NCBI GenBank assembly: GCA_004292855.1
Contig: RDXN01000049.1
Location: 21,760-85,759, forward strand
DNA: 64,000 nt
From: Cytophagales bacterium
Lineage (GTDB): Bacteria > Bacteroidota > Bacteroidia > Cytophagales > Spirosomataceae
Direction: 5' to 3'
The position numbers and the translations under genes are program-made. Positions 2,370-62,850 of this stretch are shown here, one piece after another. The stretch's first letter is position 1, and each line of letters opens with the position of its first letter. Below the pieces are notes generated by a model. It saw only the letters and a program-made list of their open reading frames with translations. It did not search any database and was not told the origin of the DNA.

Positions 2370-2461
2370 TTTTTGTCATCCCGACGCAGGAGGGATCTAG
2401 CTCATCTACATCCAATTTGAGAATACCAAAAGTAGATCCCTCCTGCGTCGGGATGACAAAA
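2370..2461. repeat. REP/MITE-like palindromic element, copy 1
   Basis: TTTTTGTCATCCCGACGCAGGAGGGATCTAG ... AGTAGATCCCTCCTGCGTCGGGATGACAAAAG; perfect ~29-bp terminal inverted repeats. Confidence 0.9.
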
Positions 2462-2477
2462 GTCCGCGTACCAATCC

Positions 2478-3401
2478 TTATGCCAATCGCTCCAATAACG
2501 CTTTGGTTTTCTTGATGCCTTCGTATTCGTCGATTTTGCTGCCCTCGTACTCGATACCGGCGTAGCCCCGGAAACCGCTGTCTTTCACGATCTTCATCAT
2601 GCGGACGTAGTCGGTTTCGATGCAGTTTCCCTGCGCGTCGAAGTCGTACGTTTTAGCCGAAACGCCTTTGGCATAAGGCATTAGCTCCTGTGTGCCCTGA
2701 TAGCGGTCGTACGATTCCTCGCAGTCGAACGAGCCGGATTTGCGCTTGATGCAGAAGTTGCCGAAGTCGGGGAGGGTGCCCACGTTTTTCATGCCTACTT
2801 GCTTCATCACGCCCGATAGCCATTGCCCATTCGATGAATAGCCACCGTGGTTTTCGACAATAATGTTGATGCGAGTCTTTTTGGCAAACTCGCCAAGTGC
2901 GCCCAATCCTTCAACAGCAGCTTTAGCCACCTCGTCGGCGGTTCCGTTGCCGTAGGCGTTTACGCGGATGGTTTTGCAGCCAAGGTATTTGGCACACTCG
3001 ACCCACTTTTTGTGGTTATCGACTGCCTTGTTGCGCTTGTCGGCGTCGAGTTCGGCCAGGCCACCCTCCCCGTCGATCATGATGAGGTGGTTTTTTACGC
3101 CGTTGTCTTTGCAGCGGGCGAGCAGGTCGTTGAGGTAGGCGGTGTCCTGCGCTTTGTCTTTGAAAAACTGGTTCACGTACTCAACCGCGCTGATACCGAA
3201 CTCTTTTTTGGCGAGGGCCGGAAAGTCGAGGTTGGTGATTTTTTTGGCAAACAGGGCCTTGTGGAGCGACCATTCGGCCAGCGAAATTTCGAAAAATGGT
3301 TTCTTGGCTCCGGTTGCGAGGGCTTCGGGCAACAGGGCGACTGTTGCGGCAACGGTGGCGGCTTGTTTCAAGAACGAGCGACGATCTGTGGCGTTTGTCA
3401 T
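2478..3401 (-). CDS. sugar phosphate isomerase/epimerase (xylose-isomerase-like TIM barrel), Tat-signal secreted
   Basis: N-term [18 protein letters not shown] twin-arginine signal; TIM-barrel isomerase-like motifs ([14 protein letters not shown]). Confidence 0.7.
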
Positions 3402-3685
3402 GATTTTAAAAGCGGTATAGGAACGGGCTTACTCAAAACGACATAAAAAAAGCTGACCGTATAGCGGCCAGCCTTTCTGATAGTTGAATACAACCTGAAT
3501 TATAGCAATAACCAGAGAATTATTTGTATAAAATTGATTAATGTAATCCAGATTTCCAAATTTTTAATCGAAACTTATTGAACAACTACCGATAAGTTAG
3601 CCTGAAAAGGACGTACTTAATTGATAGTCAGTTTCTTTTACCGTGTAGAAAATATAATACAAACACGCAAACAAGCCTTGTATTA

Positions 3686-3784
3686 CACCCTGCCAGTGGT
3701 CGACAGACCCTGGCAGGGGTTTCTGACTAGCGAGCGAGTACCCACGGACACCCCTGCCAGGGTCTGTCGACCACTGGCAGGGTG
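3686..3784. repeat. perfect 35-bp inverted repeat, 29-nt spacer (CACCCTGCCAGTGGTCGACAGACCCTGGCAGGGGT / reverse complement)
   Basis: read directly; arm2 is the exact reverse complement of arm1; each arm is itself near-palindromic around GTCGAC. Confidence 0.9.
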
Positions 3785-3793
3785 TTGGGCAGG

Positions 3794-4807: not shown

Positions 4808-4856
4808 TGCTCAAAATTAACCCTTAAAACCCGAAAAAGCTGTACTTTCGCCGGTA

Positions 4857-6039: not shown

Positions 6040-6041
6040 TT

Positions 6042-6596
6042 TTACTTCACCTGATAAACCCCCCGTGTAAAAGGCGGTTGCCGTAGGAGTTGAAACGAGT
6101 TTTCATCACCGAGCATGACGGCCCGGCGGAGGTCGTTTTCGGCTTGCTGGATTTGCCGGAGTTGAATCCGGGCAAGGGCACGCCAACGGTAAGCGTCGGG
6201 TTGCTCGTCGCGGAGGTGCCAAACCGCCTTATCGAACTCGCGGAAGGCTTCGGGAAACTGGTGCGTTTTGTAGTAGGCAATGCCCCGGTCGAGGTAACAG
6301 TCGCCGAGAGTGTTGTCGCGGCTGAGGGCCTGGGTGAGGTCGTAAATGGCCGAATAGTAGTTGTCTTGCAGCAACTGGCATTTACCCCGGTAGGCATAGG
6401 CAATGGCCGATTTCGGATGCTGCTTCACGGCCTCATTGAAATACGTAAATGCAGGCTCAAGATCTCGATTTTTGAGTTGTTCAATGCCTGTCTCAAACCG
6501 GATACGATCTTTATCGGCGGGTGTGTCGTGGTCCGTAACGAAGTATTTGATGGCCAGATAAACGGCAAACAGCAAACCGATCAGCGAGACTTCCAT
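6042..6596 (-). CDS. TPR-repeat protein, N-terminal membrane anchor
   Basis: N-term TM helix; repeated AxxYxxRGxxxxxxxxYxxAIxDLxxAL TPR-like units. Confidence 0.65.
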   Translation of the reverse strand: MEVSLIGLLFAVYLAIKYFVTDHDTPADKDRIRFETGIEQLKNRDLEPAFTYFNEAVKQHPKSAIAYAYRGKCQLLQDNYYSAIYDLTQALSRDNTLGDCYLDRGIAYYKTHQFPEAFREFDKAVWHLRDEQPDAYRWRALARIQLRQIQQAENDLRRAVMLGDENSFQLLRQPPFTRGVYQVK

Positions 6597-6611: not shown

Positions 6612-6706
6612 TTTTTTTTGTCATTCCGACGAAGGAGGAATCTTGTACTCCTCCAACGCTCTAGTTAGTCTGACTTTAAGATTCCTCCTTCGTCGGAATG
6701 ACAAAA
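6612..6706. repeat. REP/MITE-like element, variant copy 2 (GTCATTCCGACGAAGGAGGAATCTT stem)
   Basis: both arms carry matching substitutions relative to copy 1. Confidence 0.85.
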
Positions 6707-6711
6707 ACAGT

Positions 6712-7065
6712 TTACTCAAAAAATTGCGCTTGAGCCGCCTTCGATAAGCTTTTTCGAACCAAATCATAGGAGTGGTCGATCCACTCCTGCACCTGCGACC
6801 AACGGAGGGTCGGGTGCATGATCACGGTGTTCCAATGAGTCTTGTTCATGTGATAACCAGGCTGCACCGCCGAGAACTCATCCCGTAATTGCACAGCCCG
6901 CTCAGGGTCGCACTTGAGGTTGACGCTGACAGGCTGCGCATCGAGCGAAATCAGGGCAAACATTTTACCCCCCACTTTGAGCACAAGTGTCTCAGGGTCA
7001 AACGGCAGAGATTCGGTTGTGCCGGGTTTACTCAGACAGTAGTCGCGGAGGGCTTCAACATTCAT
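6712..7065 (-). CDS. MmcQ/YjbR family DNA-binding protein
   Basis: ~117 aa with YjbR-type sequence (LRDYCLSKPGTTESLPFD...LKVGGKMFALI). Confidence 0.65.
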   Translation of the reverse strand: MNVEALRDYCLSKPGTTESLPFDPETLVLKVGGKMFALISLDAQPVSVNLKCDPERAVQLRDEFSAVQPGYHMNKTHWNTVIMHPTLRWSQVQEWIDHSYDLVRKSLSKAAQAQFFE

Positions 7066-7250
7066 CGGTTGCAGGCACGAACAATCATGACGACTAAACA
7101 AAACAAAAACATCACAATCGAGATCCGATTGATGCCGTGCATCATACGGAGGTTAAAACTCGACGGATCGTTGGGGTTGGGCTTGCGAAACACCCGCAGG
7201 AAATAAGCAAACACCGGCCCAATTTTGAGATAATCAATGAAGCGATTCAT
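7062..7250 (-). CDS. small hypothetical membrane protein (62 aa)
   Basis: C-terminal TM helix; stop overlaps the MmcQ start codon (ATGA), suggesting translational coupling. Confidence 0.3.
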   Translation of the reverse strand: MNRFIDYLKIGPVFAYFLRVFRKPNPNDPSSFNLRMMHGINRISIVMFLFCLVVMIVRACNR

Positions 7251-10526: not shown

Positions 10527-11663
10527 TTGCGATCCATTATGAAAAAATTAGCGTACATAGATGCCTTGCGCGGGCTGGCGATCCTGGGCGTAGTGATGGT
10601 CCACACCAATCAGTACGGTCATTTGAACTTACCGTGGGGCATTGAGAAAATCGTTTGGAAAGGAGGGCGTGGAGTTCAATTGTTCTTTCTGGCAAGTGCA
10701 TTTACCCTGTTTTTGTCGTACGGTAATCGGCTGGCGAAGGAGACAAGGCCGGTACGAAACTTCTTTATCCGACGCTATTTTCGCATTGCACCCATGTACT
10801 ATTTAGGGGTGCTTTACTACCTGTTCCAGGATGGGTTTGGCCCTCGCTATTGGCTGGGCGACGAACCAGGCATCACAGGGGTCAACGTTTTATCGAACTT
10901 CCTGTTTGTGAACGGTTTTAACCCGTATTGGTTTAGCAGCATTGTGCATGGAGGGTGGTCTATCGCGGTCGAGATGTTGTTTTACGCGCTGGTGCCGTTT
11001 CTGTTTTCGCGTATGAAGAACCCTCGGCAAGTGTTAGTATTTTTTGGACTATCGCTGGGGATTAGATTGGGGCTTCAACTGTTGTTTGAAACATACCCGC
11101 TCATTGCGCACGCCAAACTGTGGGAGGAATACCTGTCGCTGTATTTTCCGGCGCAACTCCCCGTATTCGCGCTGGGGATTCTGCTCTATTTCGTCGTTCG
11201 TGATGAACCGGCCCTACTCCGGCGCGTGTCGGGCAAATGGTTACTGCTGGCTAGTGTCGTTTTGTTAGCTCTGCTTGTCAACGGCGACCGGCTGGCGTTG
11301 CCCAATTTTGTGTCTCTTATTCTACCCGACCACGTTTTGTTCGGGGTCGCCTTTTTTCTGCTCGCCTTAGGCCTAAGTCGCTACCCGTGGCCGTTACTCG
11401 TGAACCCGGTCACGACGCATCTCGGCAAGATCAGTTTCAGCCTGTATCTGGTCCATTTTGGGGTCTTGTACTGGCTCGAACGATTCAACCTGACTGACTA
11501 TTTCTATAACGCTACCTTGGACTACGGCCTCCGACTCGTATTGGTGCTGTTGCTCGGTGGGTTGCTCTCCACGGCTTTCTATCACTTTGTCGAAGTACCT
11601 GGGCAAAGGTTAGGGAGCCGGTTGATTAAGCGGCTGGAGCGAAAAGAGGTAGTGGCAGTTTAG
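10527..11663 (+). CDS. acyltransferase family 3 (OatA-like) membrane protein
   Basis: N-term YIDALRGLAILGVVMVH signature, about 10 TM helices. Confidence 0.8.
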   Translation: MRSIMKKLAYIDALRGLAILGVVMVHTNQYGHLNLPWGIEKIVWKGGRGVQLFFLASAFTLFLSYGNRLAKETRPVRNFFIRRYFRIAPMYYLGVLYYLFQDGFGPRYWLGDEPGITGVNVLSNFLFVNGFNPYWFSSIVHGGWSIAVEMLFYALVPFLFSRMKNPRQVLVFFGLSLGIRLGLQLLFETYPLIAHAKLWEEYLSLYFPAQLPVFALGILLYFVVRDEPALLRRVSGKWLLLASVVLLALLVNGDRLALPNFVSLILPDHVLFGVAFFLLALGLSRYPWPLLVNPVTTHLGKISFSLYLVHFGVLYWLERFNLTDYFYNATLDYGLRLVLVLLLGGLLSTAFYHFVEVPGQRLGSRLIKRLERKEVVAV

Positions 11664-11827
11664 CCCCATCGGGGCGGCATGTTAATAGAAAACAAACGGT
11701 TTATTTGCAGTTAAAGCCCCATCGGGGCGGTATGTCCAGAGGTCGCACAATAACATATCGCCCCGATGGGGCTTTGGTGCGCGTTGTTGAGCCGTTTTCT
11801 ATTGACATGCCGCCCCGATGGGGCTAA
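11661..11827. repeat. nested palindromic repeat block (4 copies of GCCCCATCGGGGCG core), bidirectional terminator candidate
   Basis: outer arms 11661-11702 / 11790-11827 and inner arms 11713-11736 / 11752-11776 are reverse complements; block overlaps the stop codons of both convergent genes. Confidence 0.8.
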
Positions 11828-12774
11828 ACCGCGTGGCCAATGCGCTCTTTTAGTTCTTTCAGGCGGGTGCGTTGCATGACAAACTCGGTTTTGCCGTCGG
11901 TCAGGCGGACGATGTATTTGTCGTTTTCCCAGAACGAATAGTTTTTCAAATACGCCAAATTGAGCAGCACCGAACGGTTGATTCGATAGAATTGCGCGGG
12001 ATTGAGTTCGGCTTCGAGTTCGCTCAGGGTTTTGCGGAGTTGAACGGTACGGCCCGCCGTGTAGGCCAAATAGTTCTTGTTCTCTACTTCAATGTACCAA
12101 ATGTCCGTGACGGGCACGAGGGTTTCGCCTTCGTTGTCGGTAGCCTCTACGTGTGTTGGATACAGCGGGACAGGGCCGGACGGTGTTTCTGCTGAGGTTA
12201 CAGGTTTGCGGGCGTCGAGATTGTTTTTGAGGGCAGCTAGTTGGCGTTCCTGATAATCCTTGTAATCGAGAAAGAGGTTGACGTTCACGAATCCGTAGCC
12301 CACAATCAGGAACGGCAGGAAATAGTTGGCGAACATCGATCCTGTAAAGAAATATGAGGGAAAATACGAGTCCCACGAGTAGTTGGGGTAGAACACGGCG
12401 AGGTAGCGGAGGGTATTTGTGATGGGGCCAAACACCAGAATACACACGCAAAAAATGGGCAAAAACAGCAACTCGTATCGTACAACGGCCCCCAACGTTG
12501 GCTGGATCGAGCGGATATTCAGCACGCGCAAAAACCAGAGCGTGAGCTGCACAAAGATGAAGACGGAGAGCAGCTCGAACAGGTAGTAATACCCGAACAG
12601 CATTTTGAAATAATGCCACACGTTGCCCTGCAACAAGGGGGCGAAATCGCTGCCTTCGCTACGCTGGAGGGTCATGAGTTGGTAGAGGAAAATACCAACA
12701 AGCGTGAACAGAAGAAAGCGTTTCCACTGGCGTTTTGTGCGGAAGGTAAGCGGGATGGGCGGGGCCTCGGTCAT
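11824..12774 (-). CDS. membrane-anchored LytTR-family DNA-binding protein (one-component)
   Basis: N-terminal ~200 aa of TM helices, C-terminal LytTR domain (IWYIEVENKNYLAYTAGRTVQLRKTLSELEAEL...FYRINRSVLLNLAYL). Confidence 0.75.
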   Translation of the reverse strand: MTEAPPIPLTFRTKRQWKRFLLFTLVGIFLYQLMTLQRSEGSDFAPLLQGNVWHYFKMLFGYYYLFELLSVFIFVQLTLWFLRVLNIRSIQPTLGAVVRYELLFLPIFCVCILVFGPITNTLRYLAVFYPNYSWDSYFPSYFFTGSMFANYFLPFLIVGYGFVNVNLFLDYKDYQERQLAALKNNLDARKPVTSAETPSGPVPLYPTHVEATDNEGETLVPVTDIWYIEVENKNYLAYTAGRTVQLRKTLSELEAELNPAQFYRINRSVLLNLAYLKNYSFWENDKYIVRLTDGKTEFVMQRTRLKELKERIGHAV

Positions 12775-16167: not shown

Positions 16168-16279
16168 TAACCGTTGAAGCCAACGGCAATGGATAAAAAG
16201 TCCCTGCGGGACTGCGCTGATCTAGTTTTGCAGTCCCGCAGGGACTTTCCACATATTGCCGTTGACTTCAGTCAACGGT
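16168..16279. terminator. triple-hairpin element; central perfect 19-bp stem followed (minus-strand RNA) by UUUUUAU
   Basis: AAAGTCCCTGCGGGACTGC / GCAGTCCCGCAGGGACTTT at 16196-16247, flanked by CCGTTGAAGCCAACGG and CCGTTGACTTCAGTCAACGG hairpins. Confidence 0.6.
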
Positions 16280-17250: not shown

Positions 17251-17357
17251 ATTGAGTGATTGAGCGAATGACGGTCCGCCGTCGCGGTGATTGAGTGAAC
17301 CATCCGGCAGACACTCAATCACCGCGACGGCGGACCGTCAATCGCTCAATCACTCAT
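17251..17357. repeat. 45-bp inverted repeat (one mismatch), 15-nt loop, between rbsA and rbsC
   Basis: TGAGTGATTGAGCGAATGACGGTCCGCCGTCGCGGTGATTGAGTG / CACTCAATCACCGCGACGGCGGACCGTCAATCGCTCAATCACTCA; right arm overlaps the last codons of rbsA. Confidence 0.9.
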
Positions 17358-18879: not shown

Positions 18880-19002
18880 AACCACAGAGTTCGCGGAGTT
18901 TTTTGTCATCCCGACGCAGGAGGGATCTATTCTGTTTAGAGCCAAGTTTAGTGTAGGCAAGCTAGATCCCTCCTGCGTCGGATGACAAAAAACTCTGTGG
19001 TT
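18880..19002. repeat. REP/MITE-like element copy 3, extended form with AACCACAGAGTT flanks
   Basis: AACCACAGAGTT...TTTTGTCATCCCGACGCAGGAGGGATCTA ... TAGATCCCTCCTGCGTCGGATGACAAAAAACTCTGTGGTT. Confidence 0.9.
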
Positions 19003-19618
19003 AAAAAACTTGTATCGGAATCACACTCAACTCACCGACTCGCAAATGCGCCCGATTCAGTTCCACTGCCCCGACAAACCTGATTTTCCGACCGGGTTTG
19101 GCATCGCTCCGCAATCCCGGCACCACGCGCTTGCGGATGATGTCGTTCAACTCAGCAGCCACACTGTTGAGGTCGGCGGTGTTGGAGAATTCGGTGATCT
19201 GAATCAAGCCCGACGCATCGCGGGCGGCATTGCTGTAGATGTACTCGGTTGCCAGTCGGGCAGTTGCGCCAGTGGTTAGTTGCACGGTAACGTCGGTCTC
19301 GCCAACCGTCGATACCACGCCCTCGCCCTTCACCAGGAAGTATCGGATGTTACCAATGCCCAGCGCGTGGGCGTGAGCGTCGAACGCCTTATTTTTATCG
19401 GTTTTCAGTTGCGCCAATAAGCTCGACAACTCCACTGCCCGCTCTGCACCCGTTGGCAAAAGTTTATTGGTCCAGAACGTTTCGGCGTAGCGAGCCGGGT
19501 CGAATTTGCCCAATGCGCCAGCCGCCCGCACTTCGCTTAGAGGCCGCAAATACACCGAATTATAGCCAATCAACCCAACCAGAGCCAGCCCAATACCGTA
19601 CTTCATTCCTTTGTTCAT
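19001..19618 (-). CDS. DUF2291-like periplasmic lipoprotein (ABC-sugar-transporter-associated)
   Basis: start MNKGMKYGIGLALVGLIGYN; start codon overlaps the binding-protein stop (ATGA). Confidence 0.55.
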   Translation of the reverse strand: MNKGMKYGIGLALVGLIGYNSVYLRPLSEVRAAGALGKFDPARYAETFWTNKLLPTGAERAVELSSLLAQLKTDKNKAFDAHAHALGIGNIRYFLVKGEGVVSTVGETDVTVQLTTGATARLATEYIYSNAARDASGLIQITEFSNTADLNSVAAELNDIIRKRVVPGLRSDAKPGRKIRFVGAVELNRAHLRVGELSVIPIQVF

Positions 19619-20585: not shown

Positions 20586-21992
20586 TCAAGGCATCACCGT
20601 CAGAATCACCCGTTGATAGCGCGTCAGGGCGGGGGTTCCGTTGTCGGTTACGGCCAGAATAATGTGCATGGTTTCGGGAACGAGGGCTTTAGGAACCACC
20701 AGGGTTGCTACTTTTTGGTCTTTGTTTTTGATGATAGGCAGGCGGGCACTCTCAAACGTCCCGGCTTCGCGGTAGTAAATCCATTCGTATGTCAGGGCAT
20801 TACCGTCGGGGTCGGAGGAGCCGTCGGCACTGAGCGTGACGGTTTCGCCACTTTTGACCCGGATTTCGTTTGCATGCCCCAGTTTGGCAACCGGCGGGTG
20901 ATTGGCTTCGTTGTAGGGCTTAACCGTCCAGTCGATGCGGGCGGCAAAATCGTTTTGGTAATGCTGCCGCCAACGCCAGATCGTTGCCTTATTGCTGTCG
21001 TAATAATTTCCGTCCTTACCCTTTACCTGATCTTCGGCGTCGGACCAGATTGGACGGGTTTCGGGTTCCGAAAACCACTTGCGCGTGCGGGGCGTATACA
21101 GCTCGTACCGACCGCCCCACCCACCCCAGTCCGGCCGTTCGGGTACACTCAACCCGTTCACAATCAGGTTAAAAAAGCTGGGTGTGTCGCCCTCCATAAT
21201 ATAAACCGTGTGCGGATGCTCGGCCCCCAACGGCCCGTGGTTCTTACGAATATTGGCGTCTAGCCACGCATTGTTGACGATGCTAGAATCGGGACCAGCG
21301 AACCCCGGCGCAAACGGAAACACGTCGCCACTGATGCCCCGCCAGGTCGAATATTCGTAGGCTCCCCGGTCGTGGATGCCAGGGCTAACAATAAAAAACA
21401 GGTTCGGAAACGTTTTGCGGAGCCAGGGGCCGCTATCGTCCTGATCGGAGATCGTGTAGACCCGCAGTTTAGCCACAAACCGGTCCAGTTCGTCAGGCGT
21501 GCGGGTTTGGCGCACTTTCCAGAGAGCTTGCGCCAGGCAGTTGGCCCCGCCCCAAACCGGCACCCAAACCGGGCGCGGGTCGGCCTTGTCGACCACCGAA
21601 ATAATGTGTTCGGAGCCTTCCGAATCGTTGCCCGGCCCCACGGCGTTCATGCCATATTTGGCAACACTTGGTTTGATAATGCGTAACAGAGCCTCTGTTT
21701 CGGGATAGCCTTTTTCGTGCAGCAACAGGTTGTTCCGAACCTTGCCATAAGCCTCCACAATCCGCCGAATTCGCTCCGGTGCCACCCGATTCCGTTGATG
21801 CACCGAGGTTGTGGCAATCAGACCTTCTACGTCCCATTGGTTCACGTAGGTCAGAAACCGCACCATCGACTGCGCGTCGTCCGGCTCATTTTCGATATCG
21901 GTCAGCACCAGCACCCGCACTTTTTGAGGTGTTTGCTGCGCAGTGGCAAGAAGGGGGAGAAAGGTCAGGAGAAGCAGGAATACGTGTTTCAT
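20586..21992 (-). CDS. secreted DUF1593 protein (nucleoside-hydrolase-like N-domain + Ig-like C-domain)
   Basis: signal peptide; [32 protein letters not shown]-terminal beta-sandwich. Confidence 0.7.
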
Positions 21993-21997
21993 GGCTA

Positions 21998-23449
21998 TTA
22001 CGGCACGACCGTCACAATCACCCGTTTGTAGCGGGTGAGGGCGGGGGTGCCTTTGTCGGTTACTTTCAGGATAAAATGAAGCGTTTGCGAGGTGGTTACG
22101 GTCGGCGCAATGGGGCGGGCTTCGTAGATGTTCGAGACGAAGTTTTGGTAATTTATCGTCCCCGAATACGTCCCGGCTTCGGGGTAATGCATCCAGCGGA
22201 AACTCATCGAATCGCCATCGGGGTCGGTCGATTCGGAGGCTCGTAAATAGAACGTTTCGCCCGATTTAACCGTCAGATTTTCGGGGTGCGACAGGCGCGG
22301 AACGGGTGGGTGATTGGCCTCCTGGTACGATTTCGTACACCAGTCCATGCGGGCGGCAAAGTCGTTCTGAAACTCCGTGCGCCACCGCCAAATCGTTGCC
22401 CCAATGCTCTTGGGGGCTTTTTCCGTTTTCTCGGTCGATGGTCCCATAGCAAACCGAGGAGCTGCATAGATCGAATCAGCCGAATTGGTCCAGATAGGGC
22501 GGGTTTCGGGGTCGTCTTTGGGGGCACCTTGCGGGCGAAAGCGCGTTGTGGCTACGCTGGTGGGTTGTTGAAGCACATACCGACCACCCCACCCGCCCCA
22601 ATCCGGGTGTTCGGGGGCGTTCAACCCGTTCGGAATCAGGCCCAAAAACGAGGGAGTATCGCCCTCCATACCAAATGCCACGTCGGGGTATTGCGCCCCC
22701 AGTGGGCCATGCCCCTGCTGAATGTTCTGAGCCAGCCAGGCATTCGTGGCATACTCCGGTTGGGTTCCGGGTTCGCTCGTGTTAATGCCCCGCCAGGTCG
22801 CGTGTTCGTAGCCGTAACCGGGACTGACAACGAAAAAGACGGTCGGGAAATTCTTGCGAATCCAGGGACTGGTGTCGTCCTGATCCGAGATCGTGTAGAC
22901 GCGTAGTTTGCGGTAGAGTTGTTCGGCCTGTTGCGAGGTGCGCGTTTTTTGAATTTTCCAGAGGGCCTGCGCCAGCGTGTTCGGCCCGCCCCATACCGAC
23001 ACCCAGAGAGGTCGTCCGTCCAGCTTTTCGAGTTGGCGAATAATCCATTCCGAGCCTTCGGAGTCGTTGCCCTCGCCCACGCCCGTTAGGCCATATTTAG
23101 GCAAGCCTTTTTTGATTACGGCTTTCAGGGTTTGGGCAGTCGGGTAGCCGAGTTCGTGTTTGAGCAAATTAGGTTGGACAAGTCCGTAGGCGTCCACAAT
23201 CTTGTGGATGGTTTCGGGAGCTACCCGCGTTTGCAGGTGAATCGACGTGGTGGCAACGAGTCCTTCAATATCCAACTGATTGGCATAGGTCAGTAACCGC
23301 ACCAGCGACTGCGAATCGTCCGGCTCGTTCTCCATGTCGGTCAGCACCAACAACCGTGTTTTTTGGGCAGATGCCAAGAATGGGAAGAGGGTAAATGAGA
23401 GTAGGAGCAGTAGTTTCATAGTTTTAGATGGGAACATTGGGAACCGCAA
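21998..23449 (-). CDS. secreted DUF1593 protein, tandem paralog
   Basis: same architecture and motifs as 20586..21992 ([31 protein letters not shown]). Confidence 0.7.
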
Positions 23450-23476
23450 CGGCGGACCGTGCGGATGACGCGGACA

Positions 23477-23570
23477 TTTTTTGTCATCCCGACGCAGGAG
23501 GGATCTACTTCCTTGACGCTCAAATTGAATGTAGGCAAGCTAGATCCCTCCTGCGTCGGGATGACAAAAA
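23477..23570. repeat. REP/MITE-like element copy 4
   Basis: canonical arms; preceded by GGAACCGCAACGGCGGACCGTGCGGATG. Confidence 0.9.
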
Positions 23571-23571
23571 G

Positions 23572-24525
23572 TCATCCGCGATCTAATAATTCCAGTGCCA
23601 CCCGTTCAATGCCCGTTTCGGATAACCCGTAATGGGCGAAAATCTCCAGTTGCGAACCCGTAACGGTGTATTCGTCGGGGATGCCCATGATGCGGAAGCG
23701 GTTCCGAAAGCCATTTTGCAACAGAAACGACGCACACCCCTCCCCCAAGCCACCATACACGCTGTGTTCCTCGACCGTGACGATTGGGCATCCATCAGCG
23801 GCCACCATCGCCAGCAAATCATAGTCGAGCGGCTTGATCGTGTGCATACTCACCACCCTTGCCCGGATGCCCTGCTCGGTCTCCAACCGACGAGCCGCCT
23901 GCAAAGCCGGATAGACCGTTTCGCCGGTTGCAATGAGCGTCAGATCCTCGCCTTCGCGCACCACCCGACCTTTGCCAAACGCAAATTCGCGGTTAGTTTC
24001 GGAGAGCAACGGCATGGTTTTCTTGCCGAAGCGCAGGTATACGGGGGTGTTCATTTGAGCCGCCAGCCGAACGGCCTGCTCGGTCTCGAAATTGTCGGCG
24101 GGGGCCACGATAGTCAGGTTGTGAACGGCACGAAGAGCTGCCAAATCGTGCAGGCTGTGGTGGGTTGAACCCAACGCGCCGTAGCTGACGCCCGCGCTGA
24201 TACCCACGAGCCGGACCGGATTGTTGGAGTAACAGACATCGGTTTTGATCTGCTCGAACGAACGGGCCGTCAGGAAACACGCGGGCGATACCGCAAACAC
24301 GTTTTTCCCCGCCGACGCCAGGCCAGCCGCTACGCCCACCAGATTCTGTTCGGCAATACCGATTTCGACGATCTGCTTCGGAAATCGCTGCCCAAACGGG
24401 ACGAGTTTGCCCGACCCCCGCGAGTCGCTCGTGACAACGAGCAGGTTTCGGTCGGTTTCGGCCAGGGTTTGGAGCGTGGCCGAGAATATGTCGAGGTTAG
24501 CTTTTTCCATATGTTTTTCAACCAC
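23572..24525 (-). CDS. transketolase, C-terminal (pyrimidine-binding) subunit
   Basis: 317 aa; transketolase pyrimidine/C-terminal domain motifs (IGIAEQN, GSTHHS). Confidence 0.9.
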   Translation of the reverse strand: MVEKHMEKANLDIFSATLQTLAETDRNLLVVTSDSRGSGKLVPFGQRFPKQIVEIGIAEQNLVGVAAGLASAGKNVFAVSPACFLTARSFEQIKTDVCYSNNPVRLVGISAGVSYGALGSTHHSLHDLAALRAVHNLTIVAPADNFETEQAVRLAAQMNTPVYLRFGKKTMPLLSETNREFAFGKGRVVREGEDLTLIATGETVYPALQAARRLETEQGIRARVVSMHTIKPLDYDLLAMVAADGCPIVTVEEHSVYGGLGEGCASFLLQNGFRNRFRIMGIPDEYTVTGSQLEIFAHYGLSETGIERVALELLDRG

Positions 24526-24528
24526 AGT

Positions 24529-24622
24529 TTTTTTGTCATCCCGACGCAGGAGGGATCTACTCGGTTAGTGTTCAAGTCGGGGGTAAGCAAAGTAGATCCC
24601 TCCTGCGTCGGGATGACAAAAT
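24529..24622. repeat. REP/MITE-like element copy 5 (AACCACAG / CTCTGTGGTT flanks)
   Basis: canonical arms. Confidence 0.9.
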
Positions 24623-24631
24623 ACTCTGTGG

Positions 24632-25666
24632 TTAATCGTTTAACTCCAGTTTTGCAAAGAAATCGTTGAACATCAGGCCCGTATCCAACTGTGTGTATAC
24701 CCGAATCGGTCGCCCTTTGTGGTTGTGGGCGTACACCCCAGCCGCGTTGATGCGCGGGGCCTGCCGAACCACATACGTACTCGACGAAGGGTCGGCCTCG
24801 AACGACGATTGCAGGGCCGTGAGCAACACCAGCGGACTATCGCCCAAAATGTACGTTTCACCAATGTTCAAAAACGACTGAATCCGGGTCATCAGGCTCT
24901 CCAGCGTTCCGGCCAGATACGCCCCCGTTTTGCCACGCGGCTTCACCTTCGTGAGCAGTTGGGCATACGAAATCAGGCACTGCCGGTACGCGTTTCGGGG
25001 AATCTGCCACAACGCCACCGCCGACCGATTGAACACCGCCCGTGCAGCCGCCTGATCAATATTCAGGTTGTATTCGACCTCGGTATACCCCGGTGGGGGC
25101 GTGGCCAACTCAGTATATTCAGGACCGCCGATCCAGATAAGGGTCAGTTTATCAGCTATTTGCGGATTGGTCAATACCGCCGAAGCGATTTCGGTAAGTC
25201 CAGCCCCGCAGACCACATAAAGCGGTAGTTTGGTATCGGTCCGCAAAGCTTCCTGAATAATGAAGTTGACGGCCTCGTTTTTTACGGGCGTGCTGTCGTT
25301 CACCATTGCCGTGTTCGACCCGGCAAAAACCGGAATCGGTTTGGTCACGTTCATGATACTCAGCACCTCTCGCGCTTTTTTGGCAGCATTGTCGGCCTGC
25401 GTGGTGGAGCGGTCGAAGCCATCGCCGACGCGCAGGTGCGACCCGATTATGCCCCGCACCTCCACCGACGGCGACATCAGCAAATGCGCCAACTGAAACA
25501 GTCCGTCGGGGTCGCCACTGAAGTCGTTATCCACGATCACCCGCATCCGAGGTTGCACCATTGCCAGACCAGTGGGTTGGGCAACGGCCCCAAACGATGC
25601 CAACCAGATGATGGAACTTAGCCAAAAGACCAGTTTAGGAGCTTGTTCGATGGTCTGTTTTGTCAT
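24632..25666 (-). CDS. inosine-uridine-preferring nucleoside hydrolase family protein, probably secreted
   Basis: VIVDNDFSGDPDG aspartate cluster; N-terminal hydrophobic signal; start ATG lies inside the terminus of repeat copy 6 (ATGACAAAA = MTK). Alternative start at MRVIV is possible. Confidence 0.65.
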   Translation of the reverse strand: MTKQTIEQAPKLVFWLSSIIWLASFGAVAQPTGLAMVQPRMRVIVDNDFSGDPDGLFQLAHLLMSPSVEVRGIIGSHLRVGDGFDRSTTQADNAAKKAREVLSIMNVTKPIPVFAGSNTAMVNDSTPVKNEAVNFIIQEALRTDTKLPLYVVCGAGLTEIASAVLTNPQIADKLTLIWIGGPEYTELATPPPGYTEVEYNLNIDQAAARAVFNRSAVALWQIPRNAYRQCLISYAQLLTKVKPRGKTGAYLAGTLESLMTRIQSFLNIGETYILGDSPLVLLTALQSSFEADPSSSTYVVRQAPRINAAGVYAHNHKGRPIRVYTQLDTGLMFNDFFAKLELND

Positions 25667-25750
25667 CCCGAAGCATGAGGGATCTACTCCGCTAACGCTC
25701 AAGTTGAGAGTGGACAAGCTAGATCCCTCCTGCGTCGGGATGACAAAAAA
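25657..25750. repeat. REP/MITE-like element copy 6 (left arm degenerate: GAAGCATGAGGG)
   Basis: read directly. Confidence 0.85.
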
Positions 25751-25773
25751 TTGTGTTACAGTATTTCGCTCTT

Positions 25774-27490: not shown

Positions 27491-27505
27491 CATATTGGTA
27501 TTCAT

Positions 27506-37801: not shown

Positions 37802-37879
37802 GTTTTTGTCATTCCGAGGTACGAGGAATCTCACAATCAGGCAACTGTAAGATTCCTCGTACCTCGGAATGACAAAAAC
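37802..37879. repeat. REP/MITE-like element, short variant copy 7 (GTCATTCCGAGGTACGAGGAATCT)
   Basis: perfect 29-bp arms with matching substitutions. Confidence 0.85.
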
Positions 37880-41623: not shown

Positions 41624-41730
41624 TTTCAGGGTAATGTAGTATTGAAAAATCTTGTCGTATGTACTTAGCGTTGGGTGCATTTCACTCTTGTGTTTTGCTC
41701 AACCGTCGCCACTTAAAGCAACCTATATTG

Positions 41731-41824
41731 GCCTTACGGCCATGCCGGAAAGTATCCGGCACTACAAAAGTCGCCCCTTCACGTAATGCCGGATATTTTC
41801 CGGCATGGCCGTAAGGCCAACAAC
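41731..41824. repeat. family-B inverted repeat pair (about 38-bp arms, 17-nt loop)
   Basis: ATTGGCCTTACGGCCATGCCGGAAAGTATCCGGCACTAC / GTAATGCCGGATATTTTCCGGCATGGCCGTAAGGCCAAC. Confidence 0.85.
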
Positions 41825-44404: not shown

Positions 44405-44454
44405 AATCTAGTATTGAATTTGATCAAATCTCTGTTTAGGCGCATTTTTTGTCA

Positions 44455-44567
44455 TCCCGAAGTTTTTTTGTCATTCCGAGGAACGAGGAATCTACTTCGT
44501 TAACCCTCGATTGTGTATTAACGAAGTAGATTCCTCGTTCCTCGGAATGACAAAAACTCACTTTCCA
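44455..44567. repeat. REP/MITE-like element copy 8, with an extra upstream half-copy (TTTTTGTCATCCCGAAG)
   Basis: GTCATTCCGAGGAACGAGGAATCTACTTCGTTA / TAACGAAGTAGATTCCTCGTTCCTCGGAATGAC. Confidence 0.85.
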
Positions 44568-48750: not shown

Positions 48751-48795
48751 ATGGAAGTCGGTTTGGGAGGCAACGATTAGTTATTTGACCTTTTA

Positions 48796-48870
48796 CCCCC
48801 CGCCCTAAAGGGTGCCTTGCTTGCGCCAGAGTGGGCTTACGCGCCAGCAGGCCCCCTTTAGGGCGGGGGG
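48796..48870. terminator. GC-rich 17-bp-stem hairpin (CCCCCCGCCCTAAAGGG / CCCTTTAGGGCGGGGGG) downstream of susD
   Basis: read directly. Confidence 0.5.
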
Positions 48871-48877
48871 TGACATT

Positions 48878-55052: not shown

Positions 55053-55147
55053 TTTTTTGTCATTCCGAGGAACGAGGAATCTCAAATTATCCTTGCTATC
55101 TAGTTGGTAACCAGTAAGATTCCTCGTTCCTCGGAATGACAAAAAAA
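55053..55147. repeat. REP/MITE-like element copy 9 (GTCATTCCGAGGAACGAGGAATCT variant)
   Basis: read directly. Confidence 0.85.
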
Positions 55148-55156
55148 CGTACTTTA

Positions 55157-55741
55157 CTATGTGCTCAAACCATTCCAGCGTGTTCTGATAAACTTGAACG
55201 CAGCCTGTAGCAGGTTAGAAACCGACTGCGGATTGATGCCCATTGTCTCGGCAATTTCGTCGCGGCTCATGTTCTGGAAATACTGCAAATAAACTACCTC
55301 CCGTTGCCGACGGGGGAGTTCGTCCAGCACGGCGTTCACTTTAGCCTGAATCTGTTGCTCCTGCTCGTCGTTAATCCAGGCCCACTCAAATGGTTCTTCG
55401 CTTAGGGAGGCATCGTTGGCAAGATCCAACTCAAAATCGGCCGCGTCGAACTTTTGCCGGGAGCTTTCGCGATACAGTTTCCGCCGAACCGAACTAAGCA
55501 GATACGCCTTTACGCTATCAGGAACGCTGATTCGCTCGCGCCGTTTCCAGATTTCGATGAATACTTCCTGCACGCAATCGTTGATAAACTCTTCGTCGCG
55601 CACAAACCGAAAACCGTAGTTGGCCAATGGCCGAAAATACAGTTTCACGATTTTGGAGAACGCGAGTTCGCTGCCGGCCTTCATCTGAAGCCATAATTGT
55701 TGGTCGGTTTGCCCCGCATTGGAAGAACCCGGCTTACTCAC
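55157..55741 (-). CDS. ECF (sigma-70 group IV) RNA polymerase sigma factor
   Basis: region 2 and region 4 motifs (FIEIWKRRE, LPRRQREVVYL). Confidence 0.9.
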   Translation of the reverse strand: MSKPGSSNAGQTDQQLWLQMKAGSELAFSKIVKLYFRPLANYGFRFVRDEEFINDCVQEVFIEIWKRRERISVPDSVKAYLLSSVRRKLYRESSRQKFDAADFELDLANDASLSEEPFEWAWINDEQEQQIQAKVNAVLDELPRRQREVVYLQYFQNMSRDEIAETMGINPQSVSNLLQAAFKFIRTRWNGLST

Positions 55742-56978: not shown

Positions 56979-57143
56979 CAGTTCGCTTAACGAAATGGTT
57001 TAGAAGCTGTTTGAGTTATTACCTATAGATGGCGTTCGGCTGTGGAAGATACTTGTTTCTGACACAACATAAGTCTATACCCCGGATGACAAAAATCTGC
57101 CTTACTCGTTCAAGCCGCGTTCCAATCTAGTATATTAGCAGCT

Positions 57144-58695: not shown

Positions 58696-58708
58696 AGGGC
58701 AAGTTGGT

Positions 58709-59599
58709 TCACGAACGATTCAGACCGAGCATCCGAATGGCGTTCTCCTTCAAAATTAAGGGTTTTACCTCGTCGCGGAACCCGGCAGTCTCAAAATCTT
58801 TCATCCAGCGGTCGGGCGTGATGAGCGGAAAATCCGTTCCAAACAGCATCCGGCTTTTGAGTTGGGTGTTGGCATATTGCACCAATTGGGGCGGAAAATA
58901 CTTCGGCGACCACCCGCTGAGGTCGATATACACGTTGGGTTTGTGCATGGCTACCGACAGGGCTTCGTCCTGCCACGGCCACGAGGGGTGGGCAATGATG
59001 ATCGGCGAGTCGGGGAAGGCAATGGCCACATCGTCGAGGTGCATGGGGTTGGAGTATTCGAGCCGGAGACCGCCCCCACCCCGCACCCCCGACCCAAAGC
59101 CCGAGTGCCCTGAATGGAACAACATGGGCAGTTTGTGCTCGGCAATGGCCTCGTAAACGTGCCACGCCATGCGGTCGTTGGGGTAAAAACCCTGCACCGT
59201 CGGGTGAAATTTGAAGCCCTTTATACCAAACTCTTCGATCAGTCGGCGGGCTTCGCGGGCACCCATCCGGCCCTTGTGGGGGTCGATACTGCCGAACGGG
59301 ATCATCACGTCGGGGTTGTTGGCGGCCCCCTCGGCTACTTCCTCGTTCGGAATCCGCCGACGCCCTAACTCGTATTCGGCGTCAATCGTGAACATCACGA
59401 AGGCCATGTTCCGCTCGCGGTAATAATCGGCGGTTTCCTGAATCGTAGGGCGTTTGTCGGACTTAAAATACCTGGCAAACGCCACGTCGAATTCGGGCCG
59501 GTAATCGTCGTGCGGCTGGCAACACGACACCTCGGCATGGGTATGGACGTCGATAGCGACGATGGTTTCGATGTTTATCATAGTTGGGGATAGGAACAC
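58709..59599 (-). CDS. amidohydrolase-2 family protein (candidate sugar-acid lactonase)
   Basis: metal-binding HxH (AIDVHTH) and downstream His/Asp motifs of the amidohydrolase_2 fold. Confidence 0.7.
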   Translation of the reverse strand: MFLSPTMINIETIVAIDVHTHAEVSCCQPHDDYRPEFDVAFARYFKSDKRPTIQETADYYRERNMAFVMFTIDAEYELGRRRIPNEEVAEGAANNPDVMIPFGSIDPHKGRMGAREARRLIEEFGIKGFKFHPTVQGFYPNDRMAWHVYEAIAEHKLPMLFHSGHSGFGSGVRGGGGLRLEYSNPMHLDDVAIAFPDSPIIIAHPSWPWQDEALSVAMHKPNVYIDLSGWSPKYFPPQLVQYANTQLKSRMLFGTDFPLITPDRWMKDFETAGFRDEVKPLILKENAIRMLGLNRS

Positions 59600-59697
59600 G
59601 GATTGAACAGATTGAACGGATGAAAACGGATTTTATAATCGTGAACAATGATAAAATCCGTTTTCATCTGTTCGATCCGTTCAATCCGTGTTCCTAT
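59590..59697. repeat. 47-bp imperfect inverted repeat, 14-nt loop, with GATTGAAC tandem units
   Basis: ATAGGAACACGGATTGAACAGATTGAACGGATGAAAACGGATTTTAT / ATAAAATCCGTTTTCATCTGTTCGATCCGTTCAATCCGTGTTCCTAT. Confidence 0.85.
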
Positions 59698-59702
59698 CAT
59701 TT

Positions 59703-60821: not shown

Positions 60822-60838
60822 GCTTGTATCATTAACGT

Positions 60839-60935
60839 TTTTTTGTCATCCCGACGAAGGAGGGATCTACTTTGCTTACTCATACCTTGTGCATGCCAGA
60901 GCTAGATCCCTCCTTCGTCGGGATGACAAAAAACT
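60839..60935. repeat. REP/MITE-like element copy 10 (GAAGG/CCTTC stem variant)
   Basis: read directly. Confidence 0.9.
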
Positions 60936-60944
60936 ACGTGCCCA

Positions 60945-62738
60945 CTAACTGATATACATACGTTCCACTAATTTAACTCTGTGCTTCAGAACAGCCCGCT
61001 GATTGAGCGAGCCTTTGTCGGTGATTTCGCCGAGGTCAATCGAGGGCGGGTCGAGGGCAATCACGGCCCGCGCAATGCGGTTGGCACTGCCCGTTGCGGT
61101 TTCGCCTAGCCGGACAAGAAGGTCATCAACATAATTCTTAATCATCGGGTGCTCAAAAACAATCTCAGCAGGGCACCCTGCATCCAAATTGGCCCATTTT
61201 CGGCAGGCGTCGGGGTTCAGAAACAGGATCGCGCTCACATATTCGCGGTCGAGGCCGACAATCACTACATCCTGCACGACGGGCGCACCGGCCGCTAAAA
61301 CGCTCGCTTTCAATACGCCTACGTTCACCCACGTGCCGGTCGAGAGTTTAAAATCTTCGGCAATGCGTCCGTCGAAAAGGAGGCCCCGGCTAGGGTCGAC
61401 TTCATCCAGAAATCGCACGGCGTCGCCGGTTTTGTAGAACCCCTCCTCATCGAACGCGTTGGCCGTGGCTTCGGGGTTGCGCCAGTAGCCGGGCGTCACG
61501 TTGGGGCCACGGTAGCGGGCTTCGAGCTTGTCGCCATCGGGCACGAGCTTCACCGTCAGGCCTGCCACCGGCACGCCCAACAAACCCGAAAAGCTGCCCG
61601 GCCAGTTGGCAAACATCGCCGACGGCCCCGACTCGGTGCAGCCCAGCCCCGTAATGATCGGCACAGGTTGGCCGGTCATTTGGGTAGCCAGTTCGTCCAG
61701 TTTATTCCAGATCGGTTGGCCCAAACTGGCTCCGGCGTAGAAAAAGAAATGAACGTTACGGAAAAACGTTGCCCGCAGGTCGGGGTCGTTTTCGAGATAC
61801 GGCAACAGCATCTCGAAGCCCTTTGGCACGTTGAAATAGGCCGTGGGCGAAATCTCGCGCAGATTTTGCACCGTGGCTTCGATGCCCTGCTGAGTGGGTT
61901 TGCCTTCGTCGATGTAGAGTGTCCCGCCGTTGTAGAGCGTCAGACCCACATTATGATTCCCGCCGAACGTGTGATTCCACGGGAGCCAGTCGACAAACAC
62001 GGGTGGCTCGACGTTAAAAATAGGGAACACTTGCGTGATCTGTTGCAGGTTGGCGCACCACATCCGGTGGGTATTTATGACGCCCTTCGGCAAGCCCGTT
62101 GACCCCGACGTAAAGAGTATTTTGGCAACCGTGTCGGGGCCAACGCACTCGTGTGCCTGAGCAACGGCCTCGGTTGGTTGGGTTGTCAGGGCGTGGGGTA
62201 GGTCGTCGGCGGTGAGGATGAGTGCATCGGGGAAAAGCTCACGGGTAATCGCCAAAGCTGGGCCATAGACAGACTTGTTCTGGGCAAAAATTAGCCTGGG
62301 AGCCATCGCCAACAAGCAGTGTTTCAGCTTCCCGAAGTCCTTAGAAACAAGCGAATACGCGGGCGAAATAGACGCGTATGGAACCCCGATATGCACAGCC
62401 GCCAAGGCCAGCAGGGCGTGTTCGAGGGTATTATCGGAGAGGATGACAAGGGTATCTTCTCCCGTGAAATTCTGGTTCAGTAAGTATTGAGAAAGGCTTT
62501 CAATATGCCGAAGCGTTTGGGCGTAACTTACTCTCTTCCAGTTGTTTGCTTCATCTTGCTGAGCCAGAAAGGTATTGTCGGGGATGGATTTGGCCCAGTG
62601 CTGAAGTTTTTGAGTAAGCGTATCGGGGAATGGGGCCAATGATTGCTCGGCCTGAAGCAGAATGCTGCCATCTGGTCGAATGGTTTTGTGCGTTTGTGTT
62701 GGCCCGAAAATATTGCTCATGATTGATTGGAACCGCAA
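60945..62738 (-). CDS. AMP-dependent synthetase/ligase (acyl-CoA synthetase)
   Basis: AMP-binding motif TSGSTGLPKGV, adenylate-forming enzyme length. Confidence 0.85.
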   Translation of the reverse strand: MRFQSIMSNIFGPTQTHKTIRPDGSILLQAEQSLAPFPDTLTQKLQHWAKSIPDNTFLAQQDEANNWKRVSYAQTLRHIESLSQYLLNQNFTGEDTLVILSDNTLEHALLALAAVHIGVPYASISPAYSLVSKDFGKLKHCLLAMAPRLIFAQNKSVYGPALAITRELFPDALILTADDLPHALTTQPTEAVAQAHECVGPDTVAKILFTSGSTGLPKGVINTHRMWCANLQQITQVFPIFNVEPPVFVDWLPWNHTFGGNHNVGLTLYNGGTLYIDEGKPTQQGIEATVQNLREISPTAYFNVPKGFEMLLPYLENDPDLRATFFRNVHFFFYAGASLGQPIWNKLDELATQMTGQPVPIITGLGCTESGPSAMFANWPGSFSGLLGVPVAGLTVKLVPDGDKLEARYRGPNVTPGYWRNPEATANAFDEEGFYKTGDAVRFLDEVDPSRGLLFDGRIAEDFKLSTGTWVNVGVLKASVLAAGAPVVQDVVIVGLDREYVSAILFLNPDACRKWANLDAGCPAEIVFEHPMIKNYVDDLLVRLGETATGSANRIARAVIALDPPSIDLGEITDKGSLNQRAVLKHRVKLVERMYIS

Positions 62739-62756
62739 CGGCGGACCGTGCGGATG

Positions 62757-62850
62757 GTTTTGTCATCCCGACGAAGGAGGGATCTAGCTAGCTGATAGTC
62801 AACCTGATTGCAAATGGAGTAGATCCCTCCTTCGTCGGGATGACAAAAAA
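62757..62850. repeat. REP/MITE-like element copy 11 (preceded by GGAACCGCAACGGCGGACCGTGCGGATG)
   Basis: read directly. Confidence 0.9.

Follow-up and report, generated by a model that had tools for sequence, protein, structure and literature searches.

Repetitive extragenic palindromes (REPs), the inverted REP doublets known as REPINs and the REP-associated tyrosine transposase (RAYT) form the textbook partnership of a bacterial repeat with an enzyme, which may be domesticated or selfish. The REP doublets and RAYTs of Proteobacteria are said to have been described by Nunvar in 2010 and by Bertels and Rainey in 2011. Here we have analysed a 64-kb stretch of DNA, hereafter the window, from a Cytophagales bacterium of the Spirosomataceae (assembly GCA_004292855.1, contig RDXN01000049.1, positions 21,760 to 85,759), in which an initial annotation had noted a dense family of palindromic elements resembling REPs or miniature inverted-repeat transposable elements (MITEs). 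The repeat family is real and far beyond chance, its arms covary, and arms and genes for a GIY-YIG nuclease are tightly associated in both directions in which the association was tested, also in a near-identical metagenome-assembled genome (MAG). The partner appears to be a minimal nuclease of about 100 aa, of the UPF0213/YhbQ/Slx1-like type, different from RAYT and apparently undescribed. On balance we lean towards the view that the elements are REPIN-like doublets without a gene, each made of two inverted terminal mini-hairpins around a fast-evolving spacer, and that they derive from, or are satellites of, a selfish element associated with GIY-YIG.

The terminal 15-mer of the elements, TTTTTGTCATYCCGA, was scanned across the window with up to two mismatches allowed, and gave 24 matches compared with the 0.47 expected from shuffled sequences, in which the maximum was 3. 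The window contains 11 complete palindromic elements of 76–96 bp, nine of which are 92–93 bp long, together with one solo end and one terminal ‘stutter’ (Table 1), and the density in this genome is roughly one element per 6 kb. The count of at least 11 copies and a half-copy at about 57081 in the initial annotation is therefore upheld. Its coordinates were correct to within a few bases, apart from the eighth copy, which was given as 44455–44567 and actually spans 44446–44556. The self-complementary arms and partly conserved centre that it described were likewise recovered: the arms measure 29–39 nt with a complementarity of 93–100%, and they enclose a weakly conserved centre, of 33 nt in most copies and 16 nt in one, that has a core of CTCAAnTTGA. 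When the window copies were aligned, the arms were much better conserved than the centres. Folding of the whole element yields −40 kcal/mol as DNA and −65 kcal/mol as RNA (z = −11 to −14).

Two features had escaped the initial annotation: each arm holds a covarying mini-hairpin, and the arm sequence is common to several phyla rather than specific to one genome. The conserved unit in each arm is a mini-hairpin of 22 nt, comprising GTC, a 5-bp stem, GA, one base pair, a GNA triloop, one base pair, GA, the return stem and C. In the window this layout reads GTC, ATYCC, GA, S, GNA, S′, GA, GGRAT, C(T), and the head of the arm is an invariant GTC, usually GTCAT. Five arm variants occur in the window, differing at Y/R, S/S′ and N; the changes are always compensatory and almost always identical across both arms. 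The two arms match within nine of 10 window copies, where random re-pairing would give 2.2, and within 37 of 71 copies overall (6.0 expected). Many copies outside the window combine a left arm of one stem type with a right arm of another, which argues that the arm hairpin, and not arm-to-arm pairing, is the conserved unit.

Covariation was scanned with a pattern that fixed GTC, GA, GA and C together with their spacing and did not demand pairing. All five stem positions formed Watson–Crick pairs in 285 of the 350 matches, and permutation of the 3′ halves lowered this to 86 of 350. The matches comprised nine or more stem types; the inner pair was C–G in 170 matches and G–C in 130, and the triloop conformed to GNA in 309 of 327. 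For 133 distinct arm cores, 85.7% of the cells were paired (64.1% in shuffles), with 174 double-sided changes compared with 57. The covariation score of 0.558, as against 0.207 for shuffles, was reached by none of 500 shuffles, and values of only 0.05–0.17 were obtained when the partners were slid by one to three columns. Since G:T wobbles are no commoner than A:C mismatches in the arm stems, there is no sign that one RNA strand represents the functional form.

A gene is associated with these arms. In four motif-selected loci, from Flavobacterium orientale, Flavobacterium sp. DGU99, a Bacteroidota MAG and a GC-rich Chloroflexia MAG, an open reading frame (ORF) of about 95–105 aa lies directly 3′ of a left arm and directly 5′ of an inverted right arm. 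A hidden Markov model (HMM) was built from the four ORFs and searched against every ORF in the six reading frames of the motif-selected loci, which amount to 875 kb. It matched those four ORFs only, all of them bracketed by inverted arms; in the window, the HMM search gave no GIY-YIG ORF at E < 1e-3. Unbiased clustering of the ORFs within 150 nt of arms in the 875 kb identified GIY-YIG as the sole family recurring in at least three loci, and no RAYT, other transposase or Y1 TnpA/TnpB-type ORF recurred near the arms in this set. The genes flanking the window elements have ordinary metabolic or polysaccharide-utilization functions, with no transposase or RAYT adjoining the arms. The cognate tyrosine transposase (RAYT) for which the initial annotation had suggested a search was thus not found, the nuclease of about 100 aa being the only protein that recurs by the arms.

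These searches bear on the possibility that the elements are classical MITEs or REPINs that owe their mobility to a DDE transposase or RAYT from another part of the genome. Such an origin would fit their terminal inverted repeats, small size, high copy number, intergenic position and doublet architecture. It is set against the absence of a transposase or RAYT by the arms in either the window or the 875 kb, the identity of the bracketed gene as a GIY-YIG nuclease, the lack of a target-site duplication at the 11 flank pairs and the lack of a GTAG head, and we consider it very improbable.

The association was also examined in reverse, using 80 metagenome loci picked solely by similarity of the GIY-YIG protein and a strict arm detector. 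A sense arm was present upstream in 42 of 74 loci and an inverted arm downstream in 54 of 77, with both present in 36 of 71. Around the metagenome GIY-YIG loci, 218 arms were detected in 190 kb, whereas shuffles gave 0–1, and arm density was highest, at 5.6 per kb, within 100 nt of the GIY-YIG gene, declining successively to 3.4, 1.8, 0.58 and finally 0.08 per kb at 800–1500 nt. A motif-free test gave a similar picture, with an exact inverted flank match of at least 12 nt in 37 of 68 GIY-YIG loci and in none of 68 shuffles. Bracketed GIY-YIG genes were also present in annotated plasmid records, namely those of Spirosoma oryzicola, Planktothrix agardhii (arm type GTCATTCTGAGTGAAACGAAGAATC) and Sinorhizobium meliloti pSymB, which has a different hairpin (GTCATCCTCGGGCTTGACCCGAGGATC). 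On P. agardhii plasmid p1 (L205, 18.8–19.1 kb), the arm-flanked gene lies inside a defence island, with an MmeI-type restriction-modification gene on one side and the DISARM gene drmA on the other. With regard to membership of the nuclease in a defence system, PADLOC gave no match, and there was only a weak match to a PHROG of unidentified role.

The arm-bracketed protein consists of a single GIY-YIG domain of about 100 aa (Pfam PF01541, E about 5e-16 to 6e-16). An alignment of 40 homologues shows no variation at Y9, Y20, G22, H34, E69 and N88, and conservation of 90% or more at R30; from what is known of I-TevI and UvrC, these seven residues correspond to the GIY-YIG catalytic set. The AlphaFold2 model, with a mean predicted local distance difference test score of 93, has three strands and four helices. 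Its best solved folds in Foldseek were UPF0213 BH0048 (1zg2, probability 1.00), followed by Slx1 (4xm5 and 7cq2, probability 0.99) and then the UvrC N-terminal domain; 6sei was also among the matched Slx1 structures. A sequence search of the PDB returned 1ywl, a UPF0213 protein (E = 1.7e-3), and in NCBIfam the protein weakly matched the model for group I intron endonucleases. Judged by its conserved residues and predicted fold, the nuclease looks active and structure-specific. Neither Pfam nor the AlphaFold2 model indicates a C-terminal DNA-binding domain of the homing-endonuclease kind. Because the protein is a single domain without a DNA-binding module, Slx1-like recognition of structure would fit better than recognition of a long sequence.

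The window is 98–99% identical, over about 21 kb, to contig JAAFIZ010000029 of a Cytophagales (Spirosomataceae-like) MAG, GCA_013297945.1, and matches Logan contigs of run SRR7244341 exactly. These short-read contigs, which come from the source sample, stop about 40 nt past the flanking gene, at element positions, as expected for a high-copy repeat. At least two GIY-YIG genes are present in the MAG, each flanked on both sides by window-type elements. One encodes protein P0141, found in a search with the Spirosoma GIY-YIG protein, and is located on contig 66 (L206) with complete 93-bp elements and terminal stutters on both sides; the other, on contig 23 (L210), occupies the ilvN–ilvC spacer between two complete elements. 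Both contigs also show that copies of the family exist elsewhere in the genome. In two Spirosomataceae genomes, the left arm of the element just 3′ of the GIY-YIG stop contains a conserved 16-nt insert, GGCTCCGGCCATCCGG (L206, 2813–2880) or AGCTGCGGCCACCCGG (L207, 2807–2850), which may be a terminator or regulatory hairpin of the nuclease gene.

Comparison of orthologous intergenic sites revealed both filled and empty alleles. The ilvN–ilvC spacer is filled, in the order element, GIY-YIG gene, element, in Spirosoma sp. KCTC 42546 and in the MAG, and is empty, with a length of 77–81 nt, in S. daeguense and Spirosoma sp. KNUC1025. The ilvN genes of the latter two are closer to ilvN of KCTC 42546 than the MAG gene is; with two lineages filled and two empty, gain and loss are not distinguishable from the pattern. 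The spacers around the split transketolase genes contain three elements in the window and measure 12–64 nt, without an element, in S. aerophilum and S. taeanense, and the spacer orthologous to that of copy 4 is element-free in two Spirosoma species (27–64 nt). Since orthologous spacers are filled in some genomes and empty in others, the elements and the element–GIY-YIG units are dynamically present or absent. With copies elsewhere in the genome and orthologous sites empty in related species, the dispersed, non-coding REP- or MITE-like family envisaged in the initial annotation is supported in outline. The IU_nuc_hydro gene of the window and its bracketing elements (24530–25749; L198, 8766–9979) split the transketolase N and C genes, which are adjacent (12–20 nt) in S. 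aerophilum and S. taeanense, an arrangement that looks like cargo between two elements. The start of a 381-aa gene call in the MAG record is probably misannotated, because this ORF runs through the element at 25657–25749.

The filled and empty ilvN–ilvC alleles look like homing, and this brings in the main rival to our interpretation, according to which the GIY-YIG gene is a parasite. A free-standing gene of the homing-endonuclease type would then insert in or beside pre-existing palindromes, using them as its homing sites, and the elements themselves would be spread by an unseen RAYT or other transposase, or by host replication or recombination at hairpins. GIY-YIG is the classic homing-endonuclease fold, the protein has the weak match to the intron endonuclease model, and in Flavobacterium the gene lies inside a single element, with the centres of gene-less copies matching the gene-flanking sequence, exactly as insertion into the centre would give. 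In the Spirosomataceae, however, the gene is situated between two complete elements and not within one. The protein comprises the catalytic domain only, lacking a DNA-binding domain of the homing type, and no other candidate mobilizing gene recurs near the arms in the 875 kb. Moreover, the occurrence of many arm stem types with one protein family in four phyla points to a long-term partnership. Taking both sides together, we regard insertion of a homing gene into independently mobile palindromes as unlikely, but as an explanation to be taken seriously.

The arm sequence is widely distributed. A scan with a 26-nt exact arm pattern of one genome per GTDB species found it in at least 116 stretches, from Flavobacterium, Chitinophagaceae, Pedobacter, Mucilaginibacter, Hymenobacter, Spirosoma, Fibrella, Chryseobacterium and others, as well as in Chloroflexota and Armatimonadota MAG contigs and in single contigs binned as Crocosphaera and Patescibacteria. 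Cyanobacteria and Alphaproteobacteria have GIY-YIG genes with arms of related types on their flanks, and the identical arm sequence occurs in distant phyla beside unrelated neighbour genes. Around GIY-YIG genes of Alphaproteobacteria or similar GC-rich loci (L204, L177, L185 and L189), the bracketing hairpins keep GTCATCC...GGATGAC and have other loops, for example CTCGGGCTTGACCCGAG; these hairpins resemble abundant rhizobial intergenic repeats and may belong to the same superfamily. Rfam gave no match for the window at gathering thresholds and none for a full-length element in L012 at E ≤ 1, and a tRNA scan of the window gave no tRNA genes. In the open-access full-text literature, we found no description of these repeats or of bacterial GIY-YIG genes with REP- or MITE-like repeats, although an earlier description elsewhere is possible.

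In agreement with the initial annotation, which had placed all copies between genes and mostly at 3′ ends or gene junctions, every window copy is intergenic and lies 1–24 nt 3′ of the stop codon of a flanking gene, mostly within same-strand arrays of metabolic or polysaccharide-utilization genes. The terminator role that it had offered was not borne out, and we rejected a canonical Rho-independent terminator: whichever strand is read, a T-run lies 5′ of the hairpin and an A-run 3′ of it, with no 3′ U-tract, and a scan of 21500–27000, which covers three elements, called none of them terminator-like. A broader proposal is that the elements are host-beneficial RNA or DNA structures, such as 3′-end mRNA stabilizers, intercistronic attenuators or sites for nucleoid or topology proteins, which selection maintains and which no longer move at present. 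The REPs of Escherichia coli have such secondary roles. The position shortly after stop codons in same-strand arrays, the very stable RNA hairpin, the conservation of arms far above that of centres and the retention of four copies in both strains would all be in keeping with this. Conversely, the orthologous spacers of related species are element-free, there is no U-tract, identical arms are found in distant phyla with unrelated neighbours, and a purely regulatory role does not explain the bracketing of the nuclease gene or the terminal stutters. Selection for a host function is therefore an improbable account of the family. A side effect on mRNA 3′ ends of a hairpin directly after stop codons is nevertheless probable, and an mRNA-stabilizing or translation-modulating effect of the −65 kcal/mol structure is plausible.

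The stutters provide a hint as to how the elements may be copied. In many lineages, the outermost 12–20 nt of an arm and its T-run are duplicated just outside the complete arm (window 44446–44462; L206, L008, L022, L056, L146 and L205). The duplicated fragment spans TTGTCAT, the 5′ stem half and GA(G), and its end falls at or just inside the hairpin loop, as might be expected if copying begins on the outer side and, on reaching the hairpin, is sometimes broken off and begun again. In the mechanism that we propose, the nuclease would recognize the extruded arm hairpin through its structure and the invariant GTC, GA, GNA, GA and C nucleotides, and would introduce a nick there or close by. Through repair or synthesis-dependent copying, a duplicate of the element would then reach further intergenic sites or an empty allele, and the duplicated terminal fragments would be left behind where the polymerase restarts at a hairpin. 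We infer in this way that the nuclease recognizes and cuts the hairpin and drives the copying of the element.

Several observations weigh against the elements being satellites of a GIY-YIG-associated selfish element. Binding or cutting of the arms by the nuclease is proposed from sequences and a structural model rather than from biochemistry or genetics. GIY-YIG enzymes are hydrolytic and, to our knowledge, not known for strand transfer, so the copying step is hypothetical. The association of arms with GIY-YIG genes would be equally expected if the gene simply homes into pre-existing elements, and 41–49% of GIY-YIG loci lack arms on both sides when the strict detector is used, some of these having divergent hairpins, as in S. 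meliloti. The RAYT search spans the window and the 875 kb of motif-selected loci, and a RAYT could be encoded elsewhere in the genome. Inspection of the flanks of all 11 window copies gave no target-site duplication or target consensus, and some of the flanks are inverted repeats. Within the approximately 21 kb common to the window and the MAG, all four elements are present in both, so no recent transposition has been caught. Finally, the isolated mini-hairpin is no more stable than shuffled sequences according to nearest-neighbour energies (z about −0.7), and, because this stability is not significant, the support for the mini-hairpin is evolutionary, coming from covariation. C-GNA-G triloops flanked by tandem G/A form unusually stable DNA mini-hairpins, and the energy model used here misses such stability.

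Going further, it is possible, although we put this forward tentatively, that the elements represent an unrecognized, multi-phylum class of selfish DNA, in which an Slx1/YhbQ-like GIY-YIG nuclease reads the GA/GNA mini-hairpin structurally and spreads REPIN-like doublets together with its own gene by nick-initiated, synthesis-dependent copying. If true, it would add a mode of mobility that differs from transposition of the DDE, HUH, serine and tyrosine kinds, and would give a first function to the widespread UPF0213 family, the members of which are annotated as ‘GIY-YIG nuclease family protein’. If the nuclease acts on the hairpins, its activity would explain a large class of intergenic repeats that breaks short-read assemblies and yields spurious small ORFs, and a compact, hairpin-structure-specific nuclease with a defined DNA ligand would become available.

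Table 1. Repeat elements and other palindromic or repeated sequences in the window. Positions are those of the 64-kb stretch; coding strands are given as + or −.
Feature	Position	Arm type	Structure	Setting
Copy 1	2370–2462	ATCCC / GA-C-GCA-G-GA	29-nt arms, 100% complementary	Convergent 3′ ends of DAO oxidoreductase (1206–2354, +) and AP_endonuc_2 (2478–3401, −) genes, 15 nt to each stop
Copy 2	6615–6707	ATTCC / GA-C-GAA-G-GA		4 nt 3′ of YjbR stop (6712–7101, −); 18 nt from start of TPR gene (6042–6596, −)
Copy 3	18880–19010 including outer inverted repeat; core 18899–18994		1-nt deletion in right arm; outer inverted repeat AACCACAGAGT...ACTCTGTGGTT, which extends the arms of Flavobacterium copies too	
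Copy 4	23478–23570			1 nt 3′ of transketolase C-subunit stop (23572–24510, −); 28 nt to start of next gene
Copy 5	24530–24622		Partial outer flanks AACCACAG...CTGTGGTT	Between IU_nuc_hydro and transketolase-C genes
Copy 6	25657–25749		Only window copy with differing arms (2 mismatches)	Between transketolase-N and IU_nuc_hydro genes
Copy 7	37803–37878	ATTCC / GA-G-GTA-C-GA	16-nt centre	Between heparinase-like and GH88 genes
Copy 8	44465–44556 (44446–44556 with stutter)	ATTCC / GA-G-GAA-C-GA	39-nt perfect arms	
Terminal stutter of copy 8	44446–44462		17 nt, TTTTTGTCATCCCGAAG	Directly outside element
Copy 9	55054–55145			11 nt 3′ of ECF sigma-factor gene stop (55157–55741, −)
Solo right-end remnant	57081–57095 (−)		CCCCGGATGACAAAAA	
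Copy 10	60840–60932	ATCCC / GA-C-GAA-G-GA		12 nt 3′ of AMP-binding enzyme gene stop
Copy 11	62757–62849	As copy 10		11 nt 3′ of enoyl-CoA hydratase gene stop
Two arms of another stem type, same superfamily	29035–29125		GTCACCCTGAGCCTGTCGAAGGG (−), GTCACCCTGAGCGGAGTCGAAGGG (+)	
Other palindrome	59589–59698		54-nt arms	
Other palindrome	17253–17356		45-nt arms	
Other palindrome or repeat	3685–3785			
Other palindrome or repeat	16175–16270			
Other palindrome or repeat	48795–48871			
Other repeat	11655–11832		Three copies of AGCCCCATCGGGGCGGCATGT	Around 11.7 kb
Other repeat family	41728–41820 and 29196–29236		GGCCTTACGGCCATGCCGGA	

A number of further features were observed in the window. The outer motif (T)AACCACA(A/G)AGT lengthens the arms in two window copies (18880–18898/18995–19010 and 24520–24529/24623–24633) and is also seen in many Flavobacterium copies (for example, L091, L029 and L135); the complete terminal repeat may extend beyond the core arm, its outer part being missing from most window copies. 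The two arms of another stem type at 29035–29125 (GTCACCCTGAGC...GAAGGG) point outward, not inward, within a larger inverted repeat, ACTGGCTGA...TCAGCCAGT, and the pair may mark where two old elements meet, or may be an alternative topology. On either side of copy 4, the flanking sequences (23457–23477 and 23571–23595) form an end-like inverted repeat, GCGGATGAC ... GTCATCCGC, with the TGA stop of the upstream gene inside ATGAC. This flanking repeat may be the remnant of an older element, or a hint of an insertion preference for end-like sequences. At least seven further long intergenic palindromes or repeat families without sequence kinship to the GTCAT family occur in the window, and palindromic repeats between genes seem to be unusually abundant in this genome. 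At 26586–27505 the window has a gene for a 306-aa alpha/beta-hydrolase (DLH/BD-FAE); precisely this one gene is missing from the otherwise 98–99% identical MAG contig (L198), which reflects either a strain-level indel or a difference in MAG assembly.

With respect to described systems, the elements resemble MITEs such as Correia/NEMIS and Nezha in being small, non-coding, intergenic and present in high copy number, with terminal inverted repeats and gene-carrying versions that have the same ends. They differ from these in lacking a target-site duplication and a DDE parent, as the gene-carrying versions encode the GIY-YIG protein of about 100 aa only. In addition, each end is a covarying hairpin, and the Spirosomataceae gene lies between two complete elements. 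With the GIY-YIG homing endonucleases, I-TevI and the Seg proteins, the nuclease shares its catalytic fold, and the pattern of filled and empty alleles at a fixed site (ilvN–ilvC) is similar. In contrast to these enzymes, it is only about 100 aa long, has no DNA-binding domain, is not encoded in an intron or phage and is accompanied by many gene-less hairpin repeats. The best fold and sequence matches of the protein are to Slx1 and UPF0213/YhbQ. A RING domain, the partner Slx4 and a role in DNA repair distinguish Slx1 from the protein described here; since Slx1 cuts branched and stem–loop DNA, recognition of a hairpin is plausible. No repeat association of UPF0213 proteins is reported in the open-access literature searched.

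The IS200/IS605 elements also use subterminal DNA hairpins for recognition, lack a target-site duplication and have single-stranded DNA as the likely substrate, but their enzyme is a Y1 HUH transposase and their ends are not inverted copies of each other. The double-hairpin elements or GC clusters of fungal mitochondria, reportedly described by Paquin, Laforest and Lang in 2000 as small mobile repeats alongside mobile endonuclease genes, offer a likeness that serves as a lead only; these are organellar and eukaryotic, with no sequence relationship to the elements studied here.

The REP/REPIN–RAYT systems come nearest in function and architecture. In both cases, the units are short hairpins outside genes, in which the stems vary while the unpaired nucleotides are conserved. 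They form inverted doublets that fold into a larger hairpin, the repeats bracket the partner gene, stem types differ from lineage to lineage, and genomes carry hundreds of gene-less copies. Here, however, the partner is a hydrolytic GIY-YIG enzyme instead of an HUH/Y1 transposase, and no RAYT gene was found flanked by the arms in the window or the 875 kb of motif-selected loci. The head is GTC(A), with the GA and GNA loop nucleotides, rather than GTAG, which is not present. Furthermore, the same arm sequence recurs across phyla, and the MAG that matches the window carries at least two copies of the partner gene. Overall, the comparison suggests a parallel partnership of repeat and enzyme, built on an entirely different nuclease fold and spread over at least four phyla.

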